Virus record (IMG/VR): IMGVR_UViG_2541047722_000003
DNA: 13,144 nt
From: a virus
Lineage: Duplodnaviria > Heunggongvirae > Uroviricota > Caudoviricetes
Direction: 5' to 3' (one strand)
Shown here: positions 1-13,144 of the stretch, piece by piece
How positions within the stretch are numbered: position 1 is the first letter of the stretch
Layout of the letters: each line of letters opens with the position of its first letter
Notes under the pieces: model-generated
Databases searched by the model: none
Seen by the model: only the letters and a program-made list of their open reading frames with translations
Told to the model about the DNA's origin: nothing
Translations under genes and position numbers: made by a program

Positions 1-95
1 AAGCAGAAAAAGCTTATTATGCTTCCATCGGAAACGATGATCTGGCAGCCTGAGTTCACAGATAAAACACTCTCCAGGAAACCCGGGGCGGTTCA
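1..95 (+). mobile_element. Partial IS629-like element (IS3 family), right end only; the body lies upstream of the window
   Basis: Positions 1-95 are identical to 6654-6748, the last 95 bp of the complete IS629 copy in this window, ending in the terminal ...GGTTCA. Phage sequence starts at 96. Confidence 0.9.
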
Positions 96-281
96 CCCTT
101 CGTTTTCGCCATCTTCTTCCGCCTTAGCCACTTTTTGCTTCGTTGCGGTTTCTTCAGGAGTTTTTACCCAACCTTTTTTCAGGTGAGATTTAACTTCTTC
201 GTCATCAACAATGATGTAATCGACAGCAAACTGACCGCAGGTGATCATGTTGCCTGGCTTATAGAGCATTGTTCGTGCCAT
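96..281 (-). pseudogene. Small phage gene downstream of the coat gene, 3'-truncated by IS629
   Basis: ATG at 281-279 preceded by a GGGAGAAG Shine-Dalgarno. The frame stays open to the IS junction and the stop (TGA, 95-93) is supplied by the IS629 terminal bases. The 75-aa tracked ORF (93..320) includes an N-terminal extension that overlaps the terminator and is probably not translated. Confidence 0.5.
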
Positions 282-293
282 TGTCTTCTCCCA

Positions 294-316
294 ATAAAAA
301 TGGGGCCGAAGCCCCA
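294..316 (-). terminator. Rho-independent terminator after the coat gene
   Basis: Perfect 6-bp stem (301-306 / 311-316) with a UUCG tetraloop on the minus-strand transcript, followed by UUUUUAUU (complement of 294-300), directly after the coat stop codon. Confidence 0.6.
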
Positions 317-322
317 CCAAAA

Positions 323-1576
323 TTACTGCCCAGCAATAACGATGCCCGTATATTCAGGAACCAGTACAGAGCAACCGTACAGAGTGGTGAAACGCGCAGT
401 GGTTACGCCTTTGATGTGGTCGAAGGAGTAAGACATGATCAGCGTAGCGCCCTGCTCGGTGGTTGCTGTCATTACCTGTGGACCCTGACCAGTTGGGAAC
501 GCCAGTTTGCCGTACATCAGTTCAACAGAACCATCAGCCCAGAACAGGTTAGCAGGTGCTGCGTTCTTGTTGAGAATGGTGATTGCTGCTGATTCTGCCG
601 GTTTGGCATCGACGTTTGCATATGGACGACTCGCAACATCAGTATTTTCAACAGGGAGAATCTTTGGAGAAATTGTTACGGTAGTTCCGCTAACAGCCAG
701 AACACGGAATACCTGCGGTTGACCGGTGGTATCTTTTGTGATCTGGTGTACGGAATTCACACCGGCAATGGTGAACGCATCACCAACCTGCAAGCCAGAT
801 GCAGATACCGTAATAGTCCCCTGTCGGTTATCAACTGGCATACCATTTGAATCTTTCGCTTCAACCTTGTGTTCAGGTTGGCCTGATACTGTCAAGGATT
901 CAGTGCTTCCTTTCGGTAATCGACCAGAAATATCGGTCTTGTAGCTATCGAAGGACGCAACCGGAGGGATTTGCGCTTTTTCGTATGCTGTCAGGGTTGC
1001 GCCCTGAGCATAGGCACGGTGACCAAGCTCGCCAGCAAGGTCTTTGTAGTTGAAGGGGTTCCAGAAAGAGCGACGGTTGATACCCTGAGGTACACCAATC
1101 GCCGTCATGGTGGCATCAATACCTGCCGCACAGTTCCACAAATCACGGCCCTGTGTACCTGCGGTTGAGTCAGCCATCGTGATCACGTTAGTAGCACGCT
1201 GCGTGACCATGGAAATCAGGTCAGAGTCAATCTGTGCAGCAAGGCGCATACCTGCGGCGCGACCAGCTTCAGTTTTATGTTCCGGATCACGCATTTCACG
1301 CGCATCCAGAGTGTACAGAATGTTTTTCGGCTCCTTGAACACTGAAGGAACAAGGCGCTGAACCAGTGCTGTTGGCGTTTTGCTGCTGAGGTCGAGGCCT
1401 TCCTCAATATTCATGTGGTAATGCTGCGGACGATACAGAACATCACCTGCTCGCTGCATTGCTGTATCACCGGGACGGAATTTTTTAGCGTTACGGGAAA
1501 CTACGCAGGCGGCCTCAAAGCCTTCAACGTAGTTTTCGAACATGATTTCAAGGTCTTTTGCTAATTGGTTAGCCAT
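323..1576 (-). CDS. Major capsid (coat) protein, P22 gp5-like
   Basis: 417-aa ORF with a GGAG Shine-Dalgarno 8 nt upstream. Length and several blocks resemble P22-type coat proteins as I recall them (e.g. AKKFRPGDTAMQR, FWNPFNYKDLAG, RPYANVDAKPAESAAITILN...LFWADGSVEL). It sits in the conserved portal-scaffold-coat order. Confidence 0.8.
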   Translation of the reverse strand: MANQLAKDLEIMFENYVEGFEAACVVSRNAKKFRPGDTAMQRAGDVLYRPQHYHMNIEEGLDLSSKTPTALVQRLVPSVFKEPKNILYTLDAREMRDPEHKTEAGRAAGMRLAAQIDSDLISMVTQRATNVITMADSTAGTQGRDLWNCAAGIDATMTAIGVPQGINRRSFWNPFNYKDLAGELGHRAYAQGATLTAYEKAQIPPVASFDSYKTDISGRLPKGSTESLTVSGQPEHKVEAKDSNGMPVDNRQGTITVSASGLQVGDAFTIAGVNSVHQITKDTTGQPQVFRVLAVSGTTVTISPKILPVENTDVASRPYANVDAKPAESAAITILNKNAAPANLFWADGSVELMYGKLAFPTGQGPQVMTATTEQGATLIMSYSFDHIKGVTTARFTTLYGCSVLVPEYTGIVIAGQ

Positions 1577-1594
1577 GCTTAATGCTCCAATAGG

Positions 1595-2488
1595 TTATTT
1601 TTTTGCCTTTTTAGCGGCGAAATACGGCGTCCAGTCACCAGTTTCCAGCGCCTTGGCTTTCAATTTGTCGAGGTTGTTGATTACTGCGCCGTTGCTCCCC
1701 TTAACCGTCGGGGTTGTGGCTGCCGTGGTTTTTGCTTTTGGCATGATTCTGGCCTTCGATTCGATACGTTCCAGCAGACGACCAATTGCTACGGGGTTGG
1801 TAGCTTCTGCCAGTTGCTTGCGCAGTTCAGCGTTGCGACCAAGCGCCAGAACAACGATTTCCGGCTTCTCTGACTCAAACAGGATCGCGTTTTGTGTCTC
1901 GATGGGGATTTCCTCGAGTACGGCCTGCTCAGCTTCCTGATAGCCAGGAACTTTGAGAGCCTTAACACGTTGCTGATATTTGGATAATCGCTCTTGATAG
2001 GCAGCCTGAAGCTCCTGCTCCTTCTGCTTGCGAGCCATCTCCTGTTGCTGGTACTTGCCATTATCCTCTGCCCACTTAGCCATGCGTTGCTGGTAGATTT
2101 CTTCATCGAAACCGATGTCCTCATCATCCAGTTTTGGCATTCGCGGTGGTTGAGTGATTACCGGCTGCTGCTCGACGGGTTTCTGAGACTGACGCATCAG
2201 CTCTTTCAGCTCGCGGTCTTTCTCTTTAATCGTCTTGCGCAGGTGTTTTACCAGTCCATGCTCAGCGCCATCTTCGCTGGTTGGCGAATCCAGCTTTTCG
2301 TCACCAAAGTAGAATTCCTGTTCTGATTCGTCGTCATCAGTTTCAGTAGCCTCCTCTGCATCATTGCCTGAGGACTCACTGCCATCTTCTGTTTCGACTT
2401 TTTCAGCCAGTTCGACATCATCAGGAATCTGCTCTGACGCGTCGGTTTCGATTTCAACTTCTGGTGTGTTTTCTGCCATCTGGTCCAT
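1595..2488 (-). CDS. Scaffolding protein, P22 gp8-like
   Basis: 297-aa highly charged, E/K/Q-rich protein with an acidic N-terminus and a basic C-terminal tail (KLKAKALETGDWTPYFAAKKAKK). Position between portal and coat matches the P22 order. Confidence 0.65.
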   Translation of the reverse strand: MDQMAENTPEVEIETDASEQIPDDVELAEKVETEDGSESSGNDAEEATETDDDESEQEFYFGDEKLDSPTSEDGAEHGLVKHLRKTIKEKDRELKELMRQSQKPVEQQPVITQPPRMPKLDDEDIGFDEEIYQQRMAKWAEDNGKYQQQEMARKQKEQELQAAYQERLSKYQQRVKALKVPGYQEAEQAVLEEIPIETQNAILFESEKPEIVVLALGRNAELRKQLAEATNPVAIGRLLERIESKARIMPKAKTTAATTPTVKGSNGAVINNLDKLKAKALETGDWTPYFAAKKAKK

Positions 2489-2578
2489 TTGTTACCCCTG
2501 TTTACTCGATGTTCAGCCCATCGGAAGGCAATAGGGTGCCAGGCCTCATAAAGACAGCCATTGCACGTTATGGGTTAA

Positions 2579-4777
2579 TTACTGCTGTGGTTGTTGCTGA
2601 GTTGATTTTTGCAGGATGCTGCTGATGTCCATGCGCTGCGCATGGCCCTGTGCCTGACTTTTCAGGACAAGCTCTGCATCAGCACGGGCATTGTCTCCTT
2701 GCTGTTGCTGGAACTGTCCGAGCAGTTTCAGAGCCTCGCGGATATCAGATTTCTGCTGGCTATCGGCAGATGCGAGGATTTTCACAACATTTGCCGCTGC
2801 AACCTGAGCATCAGTCTGTGCCTGGAATGCTTTAACCTGAATGGCTGCCTGCTCGTTCTGCGCTTTCTGCAATTCAGCCTGACCAGCAAGAAGCTGACCT
2901 TGCGCAGCAACCATAGCCGGATCTGGCTGACTGGCCTGTTGTTGTTTCGCCTGCTCAACCATCTGCTGTTCTTCTGGCGTTCTCGGCTTGATAACTCCAG
3001 ACAGAAGCAACTGATTGCGGTTGTATTCTTTAAGGTCGTCCATCCCTTCGCCGTCCATATTGTCGAGGATCATCGACGATACAAGGTCGTGTTTCGGCGT
3101 TCCGGGCGGGATAAGTGCCAGCATGGAAAGTAACGACTTAACCGTTGCGTCACGGCGAGTAGCGAACGACTGACCGACATCGACAGTCACTTCATAGTTA
3201 CCCTGCGAAAGGTCGTTAAGCGCGATAACCTGCCCTGTCTGACGGTCAACCACTTCACCAGTCATCAGCGCCACGTCATCGCTGCCGTCCTCATTAACGA
3301 TACGCATCGGCGTATCGCTGCCATAGACTTCACGAGCCATAGAAAGCCACACAACGCCAGCGCGACGCATGGATTTAGCCATGTTGTCCATGTAGATATA
3401 GGACTGCGTATCCATCCGGTTAAAGATGCTATCAACGGTATCGGTAGCAACGTTGCTCGGCATGTTCTCAAGCTGCGACGCACCTGTAATTTGCTGAATA
3501 GCCGTTCCGGTGTACTGCAATAGCCCGGCAAGAGCTGGAGGCATTTGTGTCGGAGGCGTATAACTGCTGACCTGAGCCTGCGCAGTAATATCTCCGTTTT
3601 TGTTTTTCAGACTGACCATCGGCAGGAACGCCGGGCGCTTTTTGTTGCGCTCCGCCCAATGAGTGGCGAGAGGACCAGGAATCATGTCAACATCAACTAC
3701 AGGAATGCCATCACCGCCAGCCTGAGTAGCGTTATCTGCAATCATGGAAACCATCAGGTTCTCAAGACGCTGTGCATCCATCGCTTTTGCTGCGTGGCCT
3801 TCGATTCGTTCCTGATTATCAACAAATGAGCGACGTCCATATACCGGGATGAGAGGAATATGTTCGCCCGGAATACGCTTCGGTTCTTCCAGCCATTCAG
3901 CGCCAGACAGAAGGCCGCAATAAACGCGGCGTTTCTTCACCGTTCGCTCGCCAATCAGTTCGAATGCACCATCGGTCAGCTCGTCGACAATATCTTTGAT
4001 TTGCTCTTCATCATAGATTGCCGTTTCTCCGCTAACAGGGTTGCGCCATGCCGTGAGCTTCACCTTCTCTATGCGAACTTCGTAGTAGCGCCCAACATAG
4101 ATGGCATCTGGCGTTGACCAGTCATATTGAGTGCCAGTCTCATCACGAGAAAGGCCTGCCGCGATGGAATCAGGGTATTCAGCCTCGAACGCTTTAGGCG
4201 TCATGGAGAACATTTCCATAGCCCACATAGCATCAGAACGGTCATATTGCTTGCTGTCCTGATCGAAGAAGACGCATGTCGCTGGGTCGTAAACAGGAAG
4301 AAGGCTGATGCGTCGCTGCTCGTTACTTGGGTCCATTTCATCTTCGTAATCGGCACACATGCGGAAACAACCGAATCCGCCCGTTACAGCATCATCAAAT
4401 GCGTTATCACACGCTTCGCCACCTGATGTTTCCTGATAGTCAGCGCGGAATTTGCCGTTCATCTTTTTGGCTAACGCTTCCGATGCCTTGTCATCCTTCG
4501 GCCTGAATTTAACGCTGATGCGATTCTGTCGATACTCGCCAATGATGCGATCACATTCACGGGCAATCTTATTCAGTTCAAAGCGCGGGTAATGCTCAAA
4601 CCTGCCTTCATCAAATGAGTAACCAGCGTTTGTGCTGCCTTCCCACTGTGCGCCGGATACCCGGACGAAACGTTGAGCCTCAATAATCTGCTCACGCATA
4701 TCCTGCGTTGCTGACCAGGCATTATCAAAGTTGCACAGCACCTTGCGATGCCAGTCAGTCATCTTTTTTTCTGCCAT
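2579..4777 (-). CDS. Portal protein, P22 gp1-like
   Basis: 732-aa ORF. C-terminal region PRTPEEQQMVEQAKQQQASQPDPAMVAAQGQLLAGQAELQKAQN closely resembles the P22 portal barrel region as recalled. Size and position immediately downstream of large terminase fit. Confidence 0.85.
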   Translation of the reverse strand: MAEKKMTDWHRKVLCNFDNAWSATQDMREQIIEAQRFVRVSGAQWEGSTNAGYSFDEGRFEHYPRFELNKIARECDRIIGEYRQNRISVKFRPKDDKASEALAKKMNGKFRADYQETSGGEACDNAFDDAVTGGFGCFRMCADYEDEMDPSNEQRRISLLPVYDPATCVFFDQDSKQYDRSDAMWAMEMFSMTPKAFEAEYPDSIAAGLSRDETGTQYDWSTPDAIYVGRYYEVRIEKVKLTAWRNPVSGETAIYDEEQIKDIVDELTDGAFELIGERTVKKRRVYCGLLSGAEWLEEPKRIPGEHIPLIPVYGRRSFVDNQERIEGHAAKAMDAQRLENLMVSMIADNATQAGGDGIPVVDVDMIPGPLATHWAERNKKRPAFLPMVSLKNKNGDITAQAQVSSYTPPTQMPPALAGLLQYTGTAIQQITGASQLENMPSNVATDTVDSIFNRMDTQSYIYMDNMAKSMRRAGVVWLSMAREVYGSDTPMRIVNEDGSDDVALMTGEVVDRQTGQVIALNDLSQGNYEVTVDVGQSFATRRDATVKSLLSMLALIPPGTPKHDLVSSMILDNMDGEGMDDLKEYNRNQLLLSGVIKPRTPEEQQMVEQAKQQQASQPDPAMVAAQGQLLAGQAELQKAQNEQAAIQVKAFQAQTDAQVAAANVVKILASADSQQKSDIREALKLLGQFQQQQGDNARADAELVLKSQAQGHAQRMDISSILQKSTQQQPQQ

Positions 4778-4778
4778 A

Positions 4779-5438
4779 TCAACCTACACCACAAGGAATT
4801 GAGTAACTGGAATAGTCGGGTTGCGCAGCCGACTCCGGGCAATGCATACACATCATCAGCGCATCAGCCAGGTTAGGAGATGGGATACCGAGCTTCTGCT
4901 TCATTTCGACCTTAGTCATAAGCTCCAGTTTCCCGTTATTATTGAATTTGCGCTGAATCTGCGTCAGTTCTGCAAACAGTTTCTCCAGCATCTTCTCGCC
5001 TATCGCTTCTTTGTCGAAGCTCAGCATGTCGTCGGGGTCTGCATACTCACCGTGGACAACCGCCCGATATGTCAGATACAGCCTGTCAGCCAGCGCGTAA
5101 TAGAATTGCGCTCGCTTATTGCGGAATACATCGCCAATAGTGCGAACGTTGTCACCCTGTACGACTTCATCAGCCCATGCTCCGGCCTGATACGGAGCAT
5201 CTTCATCGAATGGCGATTCGCTGCCCTTGAACATCGTGGCGGTAATTTTCTTGCCGGAGAATGCTTCCGTTGTCTGTCTGCGTAGCCCTGCACCGACACC
5301 ATCGCCATCCCACAGGTAATGGTCAGCGCCGTCTTCAATCGCCAGCGAAGTAGCCCAGTCAGCACCCTCGTTGATGTCCATCAGCAGACCTTCGGCAATG
5401 CGCTTAACTACCGAACCGTGACGCGATGCATAACCTTT
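4779..5438 (-). pseudogene. Large terminase subunit, C-terminal fragment, separated from its N-terminal part by IS629
   Basis: Phage-derived reading frame of 219 codons from 5438 to the TGA at 4779-4781. The first 31 residues of the tracked ORF (5439-5531) are read-through into the IS629 left end. The frame is continuous with the 6749..7508 fragment once the IS and one target duplication (1314 bp) are removed. Confidence 0.8.
5435..5438. repeat. IS629 target-site duplication, left copy (CTTT)
   Basis: CTTT immediately precedes the IS (TG at 5439-5440) and CTTT at 6749-6752 immediately follows its last base (CA at 6747-6748). Confidence 0.7.
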
Positions 5439-5492
5439 TGAACCGCCCCGGGAATCCTGGAGACTAAACTTCCTGAGAAAGAGGTAAACAGG

Positions 5493-5819
5493 ATGACTAA
5501 AAATACTCGTTTTTCCCCCGAAGTCCGTCAACGGGCAGTCCGTATGGTTCTGGAAAGTCAGAGCGAATATGACTCACAATGGGCGACAATTTGTTCCATT
5601 GCTCCAAAGATTGGCTGTACGCCGGAGACTCTGCGTGTCTGGGTTCGCCAGCATGAGCGGGATACCGGGGGCGGTGATGGAGGGCTCACCACCGCTGAAC
5701 GTCAGCGTCTGAAAGAGCTGGAACGTGAAAATCGTGAACTGCGCCGCAGTAACGATATCCTTCGCCAGGCTTCCGCTTATTTTGCGAAGGCGGAGTTCGA
5801 CCGCCTCTGGAAAAAATGA
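5493..5819 (+). CDS. IS629 OrfA (transposase N-terminal helix-turn-helix component)
   Basis: 108-aa ORF with a GAGG Shine-Dalgarno. The sequence [22 protein letters not shown]...[33 protein letters not shown] has the leucine-zipper-like end typical of IS3-family OrfA. Confidence 0.9.
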
Positions 5820-6706
5820 TGCCACTGCTGGATAAGCTGCGTGAGCAGTACGGGGTCGGACCGCTATGCAGCGAACTGCATATTGCCCCGTCAACGTATT
5901 ACCACTGTCAGCAACAGCGACATCATCCGGATAAACGCAGTGCCCGTGCGCAGCGCGATGACTGGCTGAAGAAAGAGATACAGCGCGTATACGATGAAAA
6001 TCACAAGGTATACGGTGTGCGTAAAGTCTGGCGTCAGTTGTTACGGGAAGGTATCAGAGTGGCCAGATGCACTGTGGCACGTCTCATGGCGGTTATGGGA
6101 CTTGCCGGTGTTCTCCGGGGTAAAAAGGTCCGTACGACCATCAGCCGGAAAGCCGTTGCCGCAGGCGACCGCGTAAACCGTCAGTTCGTGGCAGAACGAC
6201 CTGACCAGCTGTGGGTGGCTGATTTTACTTACGTCAGCACATGGCGGGGCTTCGTCTATGTGGCGTTCATCATTGATGTGTTTGCCGGATACATCGTGGG
6301 GTGGCGGGTCTCATCGTCCATGGAAACGACATTCGTGCTGGATGCACTGGAGCAGGCGTTATGGGCCCGTCGACCGTCCGGCACGGTCCATCACAGTGAT
6401 AAAGGTTCTCAGTATGTATCGCTGGCCTACACACAGCGGCTTAAGGAAGCCGGATTACTGGCATCAACAGGAAGTACAGGCGACTCGTATGACAACGCGA
6501 TGGCGGAGAGCATCAATGGTCTTTACAAAGCGGAGGTAATACACCGTAAGAGCTGGAAAAACCGTGCAGAAGTGGAACTGGCCACACTCACGTGGGTGGA
6601 CTGGTATAACAATCGACGATTGCTGGAAAGGCTGGGCCATACTCCTCCGGCAGAAGCAGAAAAAGCTTATTATGCTTCCATCGGAAACGATGATCTGGCA
6701 GCCTGA
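5816..6706 (+). CDS. IS629 OrfB (transposase catalytic DDE domain), expressed as an OrfAB fusion by -1 frameshift
   Basis: 296-aa ORF in the -1 frame relative to orfA, overlapping the orfA stop at the A-rich stretch tggAAAAAAtga (5808-5819). Contains DDE-type integrase motifs ([23 protein letters not shown]). Confidence 0.9.
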
Positions 6707-6748
6707 GTTCACAGATAAAACACTCTCCAGGAAACCCGGGGCGGTTCA

Positions 6749-6752
6749 CTTT
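6749..6752. repeat. IS629 target-site duplication, right copy (CTTT)
   Basis: Identical to 5435-5438 and directly abuts the IS629 right terminus. Confidence 0.7.
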
Positions 6753-7508
6753 AGCATCTGGCCCTGTATCTGATGGGTCATGCGCAGAGACAACAGCGCC
6801 TTTCGCTTTCCATCCGAGTTTCTTGTGCGCATCGGTTGCGGCTTCAAGCCATTCACGTTTGATGATTGCCATATCACTTGCGCTTACTGGCTCACCAAGC
6901 CAGATGTGACGATACAGTGTCGGGTTTCTGCGTTTACACTCTTCCATCTCCAGACGGAGAACTTCAGGAAAGTGCGGGTTGTCGGTGTAGTTCACCGTCA
7001 GCAGACAAATATCATCGGGAGGGTTTACTACGAATCGCTGATAGGTATCGTCGAGGATGTTTTTCGGGTTGAAGCTCACCCATATTTCGGAAAATGGCTT
7101 GCGGATGGTTGGTATCAGGATATCCCATGATTCCTTCGTTACCGCTTCCGCTTCCTCCACCCAGCAGATATCAATGCCTTCGAGCGATTTAATCTTCGTC
7201 GGGTTGTTTTTGATGCCGTAGAACATGAACTCAGCATTCGTCCCGAGATGACGAATCATGGAACGCTGAATTTCAAACTCAGCCGTATACCCTTCACGCT
7301 CTATGGTGTCTTCAAGCAGCCGGATTACCGAATCGCTGATACTGTTTTGCAGTTCACGAGCGCAGAGAATACGCACTGGCTGCCGACGCGCCGCTTCAAC
7401 AAGCAGTCTCGCAATTGCCCATGATTTACCGCTACCTCGACCGCCTTTGGCGACTTTGTAGCGATGCGCCTCAATGAACGGTTCAAAGATAGGATTAATC
7501 GAGGTCAT
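6749..7508 (-). pseudogene. Large terminase subunit, N-terminal ATPase fragment, interrupted by IS629
   Basis: ATG at 7508 overlaps the terS stop. Walker A-like motif KGGRGSGKS near the N-terminus. About 253 phage-derived codons, then the frame runs into the IS629 right end (the last 53 residues of the tracked 306-aa ORF are IS-encoded). Confidence 0.85.
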
Positions 7509-7945
7509 TTTCCGAATAGAGTACTCATCGGTGATGTTTCAATCTGGATTGCGCCGCCGTCTTTGCCTGTTAGCTCGTGATCAACCTTGTCGCGCCATTT
7601 ATCCTTCTGTCGGTTCTTAAGCCAGAAGATGGCAGCTGTTGTATCAGGCGGGTAATACTTCTCAAGAGGAGTTTCGACAATTCTGTTTTCAATAACACGA
7701 ATATCGATGTCTGGAGCCACGAAGCCCATAGCGCGTTGATAAAGACGGTCACTAACTTCTGCATCAGCGACGGCCTTACCCTTTTTTATGGACTCCGAAA
7801 ACTCAGGATAATCAAGCTTCCACTTGTTAATAGTTGACTCACTGACTTCGAAGAAATCAGCAAGCTCTGCATCGGTGTAGCCCAGCAAGCACAGTTTGCG
7901 TGCCTGTTCGGCATACGCCTCTTGATACTTTGTTGGGCGCGCCAT
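7505..7945 (-). CDS. Small terminase subunit
   Basis: 146-aa ORF immediately upstream of and overlapping large terminase by 4 bp. The N-terminal segment (MARPTKYQEAYAEQARKLCLLGYTDAELADFFEVSESTINKWK) resembles the helix-turn-helix region of phage small terminase families as recalled. Confidence 0.75.
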   Translation of the reverse strand: MARPTKYQEAYAEQARKLCLLGYTDAELADFFEVSESTINKWKLDYPEFSESIKKGKAVADAEVSDRLYQRAMGFVAPDIDIRVIENRIVETPLEKYYPPDTTAAIFWLKNRQKDKWRDKVDHELTGKDGGAIQIETSPMSTLFGK

Positions 7946-7947
7946 GT

Positions 7948-8190
7948 TTATGCTCCGGTGGTGAACAGGTCTAACGCTTCCTTCGATTTACGCACCGCTT
8001 CGATAGTGCGGGTCGTGATATCTGAATTAGCGCCGCCTGACTGGAAGTGAATTTTGAATAGCTCAAGCTTCAGTTCGTCAGTGCCAATGAACTGAAATGC
8101 TTCCTCTGCGGCTGCGTTCTGGTTCATGACCAGCTTGTAAATCTCTAACTGGAATTTCTGTTCTTCAGTCATGGGAATAATCTCTGCCAT
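7948..8190 (-). CDS. Hypothetical phage protein (80 aa) upstream of terS
   Basis: ORF with a GGAG Shine-Dalgarno 8 nt upstream of the ATG at 8190-8188, tightly packed against terS. No recognisable motif. Confidence 0.5.
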   Translation of the reverse strand: MAEIIPMTEEQKFQLEIYKLVMNQNAAAEEAFQFIGTDELKLELFKIHFQSGGANSDITTRTIEAVRKSKEALDLFTTGA

Positions 8191-8225
8191 TGTTGGCTCC
8201 GTTTATCCGTTAAAAGGGATATCAG

Positions 8226-8229
8226 TTAA
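8226..8229. repeat. IS5 target-site duplication, left copy (TTAA)
   Basis: TTAA at 8226-8229 and at 9425-9428 directly flank the 16-bp IS5 terminal inverted repeats. Fits the known YTAR target preference. Confidence 0.75.
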
Positions 8230-9424
<1,195 letters not shown>

Positions 9425-9428
9425 TTAA
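9425..9428. repeat. IS5 target-site duplication, right copy (TTAA)
   Basis: See left copy. Confidence 0.75.
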
Positions 9429-10228: not shown

Positions 10229-10543
10229 TCACTCCTTCACTTTGATTCCAGCGGCGCGGATAGCCTCTACATCGCTTTCGTATTGCGATTCTGCACCTGA
10301 GTCATAGCCAATGTGATAATCACCGGGAAGTGGGCCTTTCTTTGGCTTTTGCAGCTCAATTTCAATAGCTGCTCTCGATGCCTGCCACGTTTGCCAGTGG
10401 CCTTGAACATCGTCCATCACGTATTGACCACCAATATCACCACTGCCAATTTCATGGTGATTTTCAGGGTAACGGATAAGGTCTGAAGATTCGCCCCCCA
10501 CGTCGTAACCAACTCTCTTCAAACTGGCATCTGCTTTCGTCAT
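10229..10543 (-). CDS. Hypothetical acidic protein (104 aa) with an internal GYD-x-G-(A/G)ES repeat; may be the downstream part of a frameshifted gene
   Basis: ORF with a weak ribosome-binding site whose first 80 nt overlap the preceding Cys-rich ORF in another frame. Contains repeated VGYDVGGESSD / IGYDSGAESQYESD motifs and a net acidic charge. Confidence 0.4.
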   Translation of the reverse strand: MTKADASLKRVGYDVGGESSDLIRYPENHHEIGSGDIGGQYVMDDVQGHWQTWQASRAAIEIELQKPKKGPLPGDYHIGYDSGAESQYESDVEAIRAAGIKVKE

Positions 10544-12314: not shown

Positions 12315-13042
12315 GCAATCCCCCTGTCTGCAAACTTCCCTTCCCGAACTCCCGTTAACGAGTCTTCTCTCAGCAGGTAATCAAAATCAGCCGTCCAGCC
12401 CGTGTCGTTGTCTCCGAAGTAAAACGGCTTGGCCTGATGCACAAACGCCCTGACATACGCTCTGAAACCGTCCACGTTTGGCGTTTTCAGTTGCGGGATG
12501 ATTTTCTTCAGGCGGCGTTTTCGTTTCTCGTTGACCGCAACAGCGTGTGGCAGTCTGTCACCGACTTCGGTGTTGTAGGCGTTCAGGAAGGATTCGTAGT
12601 CGATTCGTTCTGCCTTGCGACGTTCAGGTTTAACCTGCCCATCGCCTCCCCCATTGGGGGGTAGGGGGGTATTATTTATATTCTTGTTAATACCTTCTTG
12701 TTCATGATGTGCGGTTGTTTGTGCGGCTTCATGTGCGCTTTCATGTGCGGCATGTACGCTGAAAGCCGCGCTATTGCTGGCTTCATCATGTGCGGCATCA
12801 TGTGCGGTTGTTTGTGCGGCTTCATGTGCGGGTAAATTGTCCATTTTTTGAGCATATTCATGGTAATTTGTGATGGTTATCACACGGCCTTTTTGCTTCT
12901 CTCCATCAATGGAGATCATCCCCTCTTTCACAAAAACCTGAAGCATCCGCTCAACCTGATCACGGCTTGCTGGCTTGCCATGTCTGTCGCATAACTGAAG
13001 ACCTAAATCAGCTGCTGTCACAACCAGTTGACCGGGTTGCAG
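12311..13042 (-). pseudogene. Replication initiator (lambda O / P22 gene 18-like), 5'-truncated by IS629
   Basis: The frame is open from the IS629 junction (13042) down to the TGA at 12311-12313 with no stop; the tracked GTG at 13021 is probably not the native start. Contains an embedded iteron array and an adjacent AT-rich tract, as in the lambdoid ori-within-O arrangement. Translationally coupled to the helicase. Confidence 0.6.
12703..12831. repeat. Putative origin-of-replication iteron array inside the initiator gene
   Basis: Nine copies of a 12-bp unit with core (C/T)ATGTGCGG in two blocks (12703-12759 and 12784-12831), including a 35-bp higher-order repeat (12705-12739 vs 12797-12831, 2 mismatches). 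Followed in the direction of transcription by an AT-rich tract (12671-12700) and a G/C-rich run (12655-12669). Confidence 0.6.
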
Positions 13043-13144
13043 TGAACCGCCCCGGGTTTCCTGGAGAGTGTTTTATCTGTGAACTCAGGCTGCCAGATCA
13101 TCGTTTCCGATGGAAGCATAATAAGCTTTTTCTGCTTCTGCCGG
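13043..13144 (-). mobile_element. Partial IS629-like element, right end in inverted orientation; the body lies downstream of the window
   Basis: The reverse complement of 13043-13144 is identical to 6647-6748 of the complete IS629 copy. Begins with the terminal TGAACC and abuts the truncated replication gene. Confidence 0.9.

Follow-up and report, generated by a model that had tools for sequence, protein, structure and literature searches.

An IS629 insertion splits the large terminase gene of a CUS-3/FY26-type P22-like prophage in Escherichia coli HVH 59

The window analysed here, a stretch of 13,144 nt, is an exact substring of scaffold KE699353.1 of E. coli HVH 59 (GCA_000456885.1). It carries prophage genes in the order terS-terL-portal-scaffold-coat, with the coat gene recognized by Pfam P22_CoatProtein (E = 2e-76), and the large terminase gene, terL, is divided by an insertion sequence. 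The stop of the small terminase gene overlaps the terL start. Positions 93-8230 minus the IS share 99.7-100% DNA identity with CUS-3 (Lederbergvirus), and the prophage, judged by this sequence, is P22-like (Lederbergvirus; CUS-3/Sf6 group). The features of the locus and its surroundings are listed below.

1..95, plus strand: right end of a second IS629 copy, cut by a scaffold gap; duplication CCC at 96-98
2579..4777, minus strand: portal gene, directly downstream of terL (Pfam P22_portal, E = 2e-169)
4779..5438, minus strand: terL C-terminal fragment, codons 254-471 plus stop (translation and alignment)
5435..5438: CTTT, left copy of the target-site duplication (AAAG in gene sense; terL nt 757-760), directly outside IS629
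5439..6748, plus strand: complete IS629 (IS3 family), 1310 bp (length, ends and identity to known copies)
5439..5463, plus strand: IRL, left terminal inverted repeat of IS629 (25-nt inverted-repeat pair, 92% complementary)
5493..5819, plus strand: IS629 orfA, 108-aa helix-turn-helix protein (Pfam HTH_Tnp_1, E = 7e-13)
5774..5890, plus strand: ALIL pseudoknot, Rfam RF01497 (120.2 bits against a gathering score of 50)
5816..6706, plus strand: IS629 orfB, 296 aa, DDE/rve catalytic domain (Pfam rve, HTH_21, rve_3)
6724..6748, plus strand: IRR, right terminal inverted repeat of IS629 (inverted-repeat pair)
6749..6752: CTTT, right copy of the target-site duplication, directly outside IS629
6749..7508, minus strand: terL N-terminal fragment, codons 1-253 plus 1 nt (translation; DNA 100% identical to FY26 and CUS-3)
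6588..7508, minus strand: present-day N-terminal ORF of 306 aa, deposited as EQP17964.1
7505..7945, minus strand: small terminase subunit gene (CUS-3 'phage terminase small subunit' at the matching position; DNA 100% identical)
8230..9424, minus strand: IS5, 1195 bp, with TTAA on each side (100% identical to 'IS5-like element IS5 family transposase' records)
13043..13144, minus strand: IRR end of a third IS629 copy, inverted, cut by a scaffold gap; duplication CAG at 13040-13042

The sequence-only reading had described the element in terL as a complete 1310-bp IS629, and this was confirmed by its length, inverted repeats, orfA/orfB pair, ALIL pseudoknot and 99.5-100% identity to known copies. 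Over its full length, 5439-6748 was 99.5% identical to the LC567824 and LC567828 features annotated 'insertion sequence: IS3 family IS629', and it matched many E. coli IS629 copies at 100% identity; relatives sharing 99.7% identity carry the name 'IS3-like element IS629 family transposase', and those at 96-97.5% the name IS1203. The 25-nt terminal inverted repeats match at 23 positions (TGAACCGCCCCGGGAATCCTGGAGA / TCTCCAGGAAACCCGGGGCGGTTCA), forming imperfect ends of the TG...CA type with TGAACC at the start and GGTTCA at the finish. The transposase genes lie on the plus strand, antisense to terL, and orfA and orfB overlap at 5816-5819, with orfB in the -1 frame and the ALIL pseudoknot (RF01497) covering the overlap. 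ALIL is a frameshift-stimulating RNA element in IS3-family transposase mRNAs. Related copies are annotated 'programmed frameshift', and orfB is predicted to be made as an OrfAB fusion via -1 frameshifting. The whole ORFs and ends of this copy are compatible with an active element.

Comparison with uninterrupted sites was made by BLAST against CUS-3 and E. coli FY26. In both cases the segments 93-5438 and 6749-8230 mapped to subject sequence with an overlap of exactly 4 nt, and the uninterrupted site therefore has a single CTTT. CUS-3 and many E. coli chromosomes contain an exact match (100% identity) to an 800-nt in-silico empty site. The 4-bp CTTT target duplication proposed from the letters alone is thus a true duplication rather than a chance repeat, since real empty sites in CUS-3 and FY26 hold one copy. 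IS629 target duplications of 3-4 bp have been reported (PMC3271280), a range that includes CTTT here and CCC and CAG at two neighbouring copies.

When positions 5439-6752 (1314 bp, or 3 x 438) were deleted in silico, the minus strand gained an uninterrupted ORF of 1416 nt (471 codons and a stop), with a junction reading ...SDTGPDAK-GYASRHG..., as had been anticipated for a frame of roughly 472 codons. The restored protein was 100% identical over its 471 residues to phage CUS-3 TerL (ABQ88401.1), so that the earlier proposal of two fragments of one terminase gene holds, and it aligned with intact Sf6 gp2 (PDB 4IDH) in a single contiguous block spanning residues 1-456, differing at very few positions. 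An origin of the fragments from different genes or alleles was ruled out, both being 100% identical to one continuous FY26/CUS-3 gene. Pfam Terminase_3 was detected at residues 15-206 (E = 1.6e-41), a Walker A motif, GRGSGKS, lies at residues 23-29, and a Walker B region, DICWVEE, ends at residue 119. The gp2 nuclease-domain structures 5C10 and 5C12 also aligned to the restored protein (E ~1e-164), in which D244, D296, K428 and D444 are all present; D244, D296 and D444 form the metal-binding triad, and the roles of these residues and K428 are taken from PMC4678813.

Among terminases, the PDB search (E <= 10) retrieved Sf6 gp2 chains and 8DKR and no others, from a copy of the database that may omit P22 gp2. 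A P22 gp2 nuclease-domain structure has been deposited in the PDB. By sequence the terL product is of the Sf6/CUS-3 type (Pfam Terminase_3; PBSX family) and not demonstrably of the P22 gp2 type. The label 'P22-like' given by the sequence-only reading accordingly suits the phage, whose portal and coat are of P22 type, and is not demonstrably right for its terminase.

The break lies between K253 and G254, within the RNase H-like nuclease domain, and parts D244 from D296, K428 and D444. On the N-terminal side, the fragment at 6749-7508, which as given takes in the second CTTT copy, contains the entire ATPase domain together with D244, and the 306-aa ORF joins 253 terminase residues to 53 from the IRR end of IS629 before stopping at 6588. 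The C-terminal fragment holds the rest of the nuclease domain with the other three residues and is without a native start codon. Judged by its reading frames, the terL locus is a pseudogene of the Sf6 gp2-type large terminase family, the single uninterrupted ORF of that family being broken. From structure-function work on Sf6 gp2 we infer that the split terL would be a null gene, because the terminase must cut concatemers and drive headful packaging. The portal gene is in addition exposed to polar effects of the insertion.

Three further lesions were found in the HVH 59 prophage. The second IS629 copy lies in the first few codons of a gp4-family gene and the third splits the replication O gene; their duplications, CCC and CAG, each occur once at the corresponding uninterrupted sites in E. 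coli E10. The IS5 copy sits at a 5.5-kb deletion relative to FY26 that, by the FY26 annotation, takes out Rha, Rz, R, S, Q, ninH, rusA, roi and ninF and cuts ninX. The TTAA pair was ruled out as a plain IS5 target duplication; in FY26 the two TTAA sequences are native at separate positions, 5.5 kb from each other, and IS5 therefore marks a deletion. With three IS629 insertions and the IS5-associated deletion, the prophage carries four IS lesions, and the terL insertion is not the sole one and need not be the first. Since the other lesions are present, excision of the terL IS629 would not revive the phage. The earlier statements that the insertion 'inactivates DNA packaging' and that the gene is 'restorable' consequently apply to terL alone.

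Several observations bear on the age and distribution of the insertion. The flanks carry zero substitutions over 6.8 kb relative to the intact FY26 allele (100% identity, as in all prophage segments shared with FY26), and the insertion is therefore recent. The filled IS629/terL junction was absent from 5426 complete E. coli genomes, and the 306-aa fused product is recorded on one contig only. These data bear out the recent date already suspected, and the insertion is, as far as sequence comparison tells, both recent and strain-specific. The most similar prophages occur in ST95 and avian-pathogenic (ExPEC-type) strains. A 90%-identity cluster around the 306-aa product consisted of contig-end partials of many lengths and was uninformative on IS sites.

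The reading we prefer, at a probability of about 95%, is that an active IS629 transposed into terL of a P22-like prophage of the FY26/CUS-3 type carried by E. coli HVH 59, and none of the observations speaks against the insertion itself. IS3-family elements transpose by copy-out-paste-in through a circular intermediate. On this family knowledge, IS629 would have arrived by the same route, a staggered cut giving the 4-bp CTTT duplication. The outcome is seen directly in the sequence: the element lies antisense to terL between codons 253 and 254 and splits the nuclease domain. The predicted N-terminal product would retain the ATPase domain and D244 and then run through 53 IS codons to a stop, and the C-terminal piece would keep D296, K428 and D444 but have no native start. 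The terL insertion would form part of an IS burst degrading a resident prophage.

It is quite possible, at somewhat short of even odds, that IS629 entered a prophage which had lost viability beforehand, so that the terL insertion would be neutral decay without functional consequence. The first lesion would then have been the IS5-associated deletion (Q, late-promoter region and lysis cassette) or the IS629 in O. The 5.5-kb deletion next to IS5 takes away Q, holin, endolysin, Rz and the Q-to-holin interval, the further IS629 copies disrupt O and the gp4 start, and all lesions lie on a background with zero point substitutions relative to FY26. Because of this same lack of substitutions, however, the lesions cannot be ordered, and without an order the terL insertion could equally be the first. 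Moreover, terL is split whichever lesion led, and strictly no more than this had been claimed by the first reading.

A second proposal concerns the site rather than the event. The start of the nuclease domain in Sf6/CUS-3-type terL (nt ~742-793, ~50 bp) might be a preferred target of IS3-family elements, a true IS629/IS911 hot spot, and the IS-free deletion junctions seen there in Shigella/E. coli remnants might be scars of IS excision accompanied by loss of neighbouring DNA, as promoted by the IS-excision enhancer IEE; we consider both unlikely. IS629 occurs after nt 790, with the duplication TTA, in GCA_964053155.1, GCA_000494955.1, GCA_000460015.1 and four similar contigs, and it is joined after nt 787 in AH19K002; the IS629 copies all have the same orientation. 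Two different terL alleles carry an IS911-like end at nt ~743-745, and deletion fusions free of any IS have their junctions at nt 742, 757 (with microhomology GCTA) and 793, which makes three of the six deletion fusions in the scorable part of the gene. However, there was strong ascertainment bias in how cases were found. The IS cases came through the 200-aa C-fragment gene call, which registers breaks at ~nt 636-814 only, or through a junction query centred on nt 790. The protein search for truncated TerL covered forms above about 450 bits only (N-terminal fragments of at least ~210 aa), giving a censored break-point distribution in which N-terminal fragments longer than about 210 aa alone are listed. 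Other breaks fall at aa 120, 304, 346 and 441. A target motif resembling the IS629 end (containing GAACCG, nt 770-783) was not supported as an explanation of the apparent hot spot, its 9/14 score being equalled by six other terL sites. The complete-genome survey ranked no other IS629-split terL. Its chimeric IS + terL + IS query had a ranking swamped by nearby inverted IS629 pairs and by prophages with IS629/IS1203 in the portal gene and intact terL, and AH19K002, which keeps the N-terminal fragment only, scores too low in it to be ranked.

The window derives from a short-read scaffold of 2013, where both flanking IS629 copies are represented by N gaps. The interior of the resolved terL IS629 could be a consensus of several copies; short-read consensus cannot account for its junctions or its duplication. 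That a scaffolder or gap-filler placed a generic IS629 within a terL gene that is really intact, as the unresolved neighbouring copies might suggest, is highly improbable, since such an artefact would not yield a 4-bp target duplication of IS629-typical size, both junctions read through as continuous sequence without Ns, and analogous real insertions lie 27-30 bp off in finished chromosomes.

Transposition of IS629 into terL is an ordinary event, and the HVH 59 prophage is a textbook case of IS-driven decay. The burst, which placed three copies of IS629 and one of IS5 within about 20 kb, can be dated by identity, with zero point substitutions relative to the intact allele, and the FY26/CUS-3-type prophage of this strain should be unable to form particles. 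There are consequences for annotation, as EQP17964.1 is named a plain terminase large subunit in GenBank and is actually a truncated terminase-IS fusion, and tools that predict prophage completeness could wrongly score this prophage as intact. Wider interest is limited to the possible recurrent IS3-family target in terL, which would need an unbiased survey; if it were true, a single short target would repeatedly set off decay in P22-like prophages across separate lineages.

Compared with CUS-3 TerL (ABQ88401.1) and Sf6 gp2 (4IDH, 5C12), the HVH 59 gene has the same Walker motifs, the same D244/D296/D444 and K428 and the same gene order, and differs in that IS629 breaks it after codon 253; over its last ~15 residues the restored protein follows the CUS-3 C-terminus and not that of Sf6. 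IS629 prefers prophages (PMC3271280). In E. coli O157:H7 and other pathotypes, its insertions into prophage genes differ between close strains (Rump et al. 2011, PMC3271280), and such insertions are also described by Ooka et al. 2009, a study cited in that paper. The terL case resembles the O157:H7 insertions in the element itself (99.5-100% identity), in duplications of 3-4 bp and in its location in a prophage gene. Unlike the EHEC cases, the host is HVH 59, the target is a CUS-3/FY26-type P22-like prophage and the site was seen in one assembly.

Excision of IS629 can be assisted by IEE (Kusumoto et al. 2011, as cited in PMC9943667; Nakamura et al. 2022, PMC9397093), and a gene disrupted by IS629 has been restored by this route, as for lacZ in O121 (PMC9943667, PMC9397093). 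The IEE route would be the only realistic basis on which terL is restorable; restoration in HVH 59 would still leave three other lesions. Among the closest parallels are the nt-790 insertions in OZ040768.1, KI538675.1 and KE701458.1, which involve the same terL allele (100% identical flanks) and an identical IS629 in the same orientation, and in which the split gene gives the same 200-aa C-fragment gene call as in HVH 59. Because they lie 30 bp downstream and carry a 3-bp duplication (TTA) rather than a 4-bp one, these insertions represent an independent event.

The element that interrupts the large-terminase gene (terL) spans 5439-6748 (1310 bp) and has terminal inverted repeats of 25 nt that match at 23 of 25 positions (TGAACCGCCCCGGGAATCCTGGAGA...). 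Its internal features are:

5493-5819, plus strand, ORF with a domain match to HTH_Tnp_1
5816-6706, plus strand, ORF overlapping the preceding one, with domain matches to rve, HTH_21 and rve_3
5774-5890, ALIL frameshift pseudoknot across the ORF overlap (Rfam RF01497, 120 bits)

Since many E. coli chromosomal and plasmid copies are 100% identical to this element and Stx-phage features labelled 'insertion sequence: IS3 family IS629' are 99.5% identical, whereas copies bearing the name IS1203 are only 96-97.5% identical, sequence comparison identifies it as IS629 proper, complete and apparently intact. Length, inverted repeats, two ORFs, pseudoknot and identity thus agree with the complete element described in the sequence-only reading. 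An integrase record from the phage 21 int region (AF017626.1) also holds an IS629 copy 100% identical to that of the window.

CTTT directly flanks both ends of the element (5435-5438 and 6749-6752). In-silico deletion of 5439-6752 (1314 bp) gave a minus-strand ORF of 1416 nt and 471 aa, with the predicted junction ...SDTGPDAK-GYASRHG.... Across its full 471 residues, the restored protein matches the large terminase annotated in phage CUS-3 at 100% identity, confirming that the fragments are halves of one terminase; it aligns in a single block, differing at very few positions, with residues 1-456 of Sf6 gp2 (solved structure 4IDH), and belongs to the Pfam family Terminase_3 (E = 1.6e-41). An 800-nt in-silico empty site found a 100% identical match in CUS-3, and the empty-site query matched 641 of 5426 complete E. 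coli genomes, with 75 records at at least 99% identity. In pairwise BLAST against CUS-3 and E. coli FY26, which carries an intact terL allele, window segments 93-5438 and 6749-8230 mapped to subject segments that overlap by 4 nt and no more; a single CTTT is thus present in the uninterrupted gene, and the repeats are, as proposed, a target duplication. The exact overlap in both subjects rules out a chance flanking repeat, and the same mapping rules out fragments from two different genes.

The break falls between K253 and G254. In Sf6 gp2, D244, D296 and D444 form the triad of the nuclease active site, into which K428 also extends (PMC4678813). The restored protein has all four of these residues, and the break separates them: the N-terminal fragment (6749-7508) carries D244, and the C-terminal fragment (4779-5438) carries D296, K428 and D444. 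The N-terminal product retains the whole ATPase domain and continues for 53 IS codons to a stop at 6588; the C-terminal piece is without a native start. By analogy with the Sf6 work, the split would amount to loss of function, as a terminase without its nuclease would fail at concatemer processing for headful packaging. The earlier claim that packaging is inactivated would hold for the gene only; the insertion is not necessarily the earliest lesion of this prophage. The description P22-like holds for the phage, which has a P22-type portal and coat, and CUS-3 is classified as a Lederbergvirus. The terminase itself is by sequence of the Sf6/CUS-3 type; a PDB sequence search relaxed to E <= 10 returned no P22 gp2 chain among its matches.

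An exact-sequence lookup of the 306-aa N-terminal ORF reading into the element found one contig only, scaffold KE699353.1 (GCA_000456885.1), which contains the entire window without a mismatch; E. coli HVH 59 (4-1119338) is the source of this protein, deposited as EQP17964.1. The filled terL-IS629 junction occurred in 0 of 5426 complete E. coli genomes, and the window and FY26 agree at 100% identity over all three prophage segments that they share, 10.4 kb altogether. These comparisons indicate a strain-specific and recent insertion, the latter as first suggested.

The further IS copies in this prophage are:

1-95, partial IS629; the window starts inside it, at an N gap in the scaffold
13043-13144, partial IS629, inverted; the window ends inside it, at an N gap in the scaffold
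8230-9424, IS5, 1195 bp, 100% identical to annotated IS5

The left IS629 copy breaks the first codons of a gp4-family gene and the right copy the replication O gene; their duplications, CCC (96-98) and CAG (13040-13042), each occur once only in E. coli E10, which has both empty sites. The left insertion, at a site that originally read ...ATCACCC..., abuts a 62-aa ORF upstream of gp4 (93-320, minus strand), although the ORF product is unchanged because the terminal TCA of the element re-creates the TGA stop. At the IS5 position FY26 has 5.5 kb of extra DNA, and the interval deleted here, by FY26 gene content, comprises Rha, Rz, endolysin, holin, Q, ninH, rusA, roi and ninF, one end falling within ninX. 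The TTAA flanks of IS5 (8226-8229 and 9425-9428) are each native to a different end of this interval, two distinct sites that rule out a simple target duplication; IS5-IS5 recombination or intramolecular transposition could have caused the deletion. Because the prophage carries four IS lesions, on a background without point substitutions relative to FY26, excision of the terL element would restore the gene, as had been argued, but not the phage. Between ninB and a dnaB-like helicase gene lies a phiTE_015-family gene (10229-10543 and neighbours) that carries a frameshift according to the FY26 and E10 annotations; the window shows 100% identity there, and this defect is therefore older than the IS burst.

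Many other contigs have the same 200-aa gene call that the C-terminal piece gives here. Inspection of these and of follow-up search matches gave the following break points, in terL gene coordinates (L-numbers denote loci compared):

after nt 790, IS629, identical copy, same orientation, TTA duplication (nt 788-790): OZ040768.1, KI538675.1, KE701458.1 (L005/L010, L007/L012, L013)
after nt 787, IS629, same orientation: AH19K002 (L009)
nt ~743-745, IS911-like end, ~15 bp upstream of the window's site: L016 (GCA_003298275.1 and 12 similar contigs), L017
nt 742, IS-free deletion fusion to gp20: L022/L023
nt 757, IS-free deletion fusion to gp7, 4-nt microhomology GCTA: L018
nt 793, IS-free deletion fusion to a DUF2824 gene: L019 (Shigella sonnei)

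The insertions at nt 787 and 790 affect the same terL allele as here, 27-30 bp downstream of the position hit in the window, and are independent events; the far side of the AH19K002 copy joins gp10, the portal, scaffold, coat and gp4 genes having been lost. The element at nt ~743-745, found in terL alleles of 100% and 96.7% identity, is of the IS3 family and different from IS629, and the contigs end within it; judging by the sequence of its end and the start of OrfA (MKKRNFSAEFKRES...), we take it to resemble IS911. Two ~97%-identical alleles, from Logan SRR2407772 (L014, gene calls of 232 and 200 aa) and ENA ERZ28762469 (L015, 243 and 200 aa), are split without an IS, by a point mutation or 1-nt indel, and are further independent pseudogenes. 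In related P22-like prophages of other E. coli, IS629 or IS1203 lies in DNA-ejection, coat or portal genes, as in E10 (L003, 6395-7608) and L007 (coat gene), and IS elements have repeatedly struck the head and ejection module in these prophages.

The IS-free fusions end 0-3 nt from the three sites of IS insertion and may be scars left where an IS was excised together with adjacent DNA, by the kind of excision that depends on the IS-excision enhancer (IEE): IEE-dependent excision of IS629 produces adjacent deletions via microhomology-mediated joining (PMC9943667), which would fit such fusions. Their ending near IS sites may also be coincidence. That the cluster marks an IS3-family hot spot is unlikely: independent IS629, IS911-like and IS-free break points do fall in the same stretch, but every route by which cases surfaced was biased toward this part of terL, other breaks lie at aa 120, 304, 346 and 441, the IS-end-like target motif in terL is not special, and a complete-genome survey for terL insertions was uninformative. 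Since prophage genes are a well-documented target of IS629, with duplications of 3-4 bp (PMC3271280), the terL insertion is an ordinary event of an already known kind.
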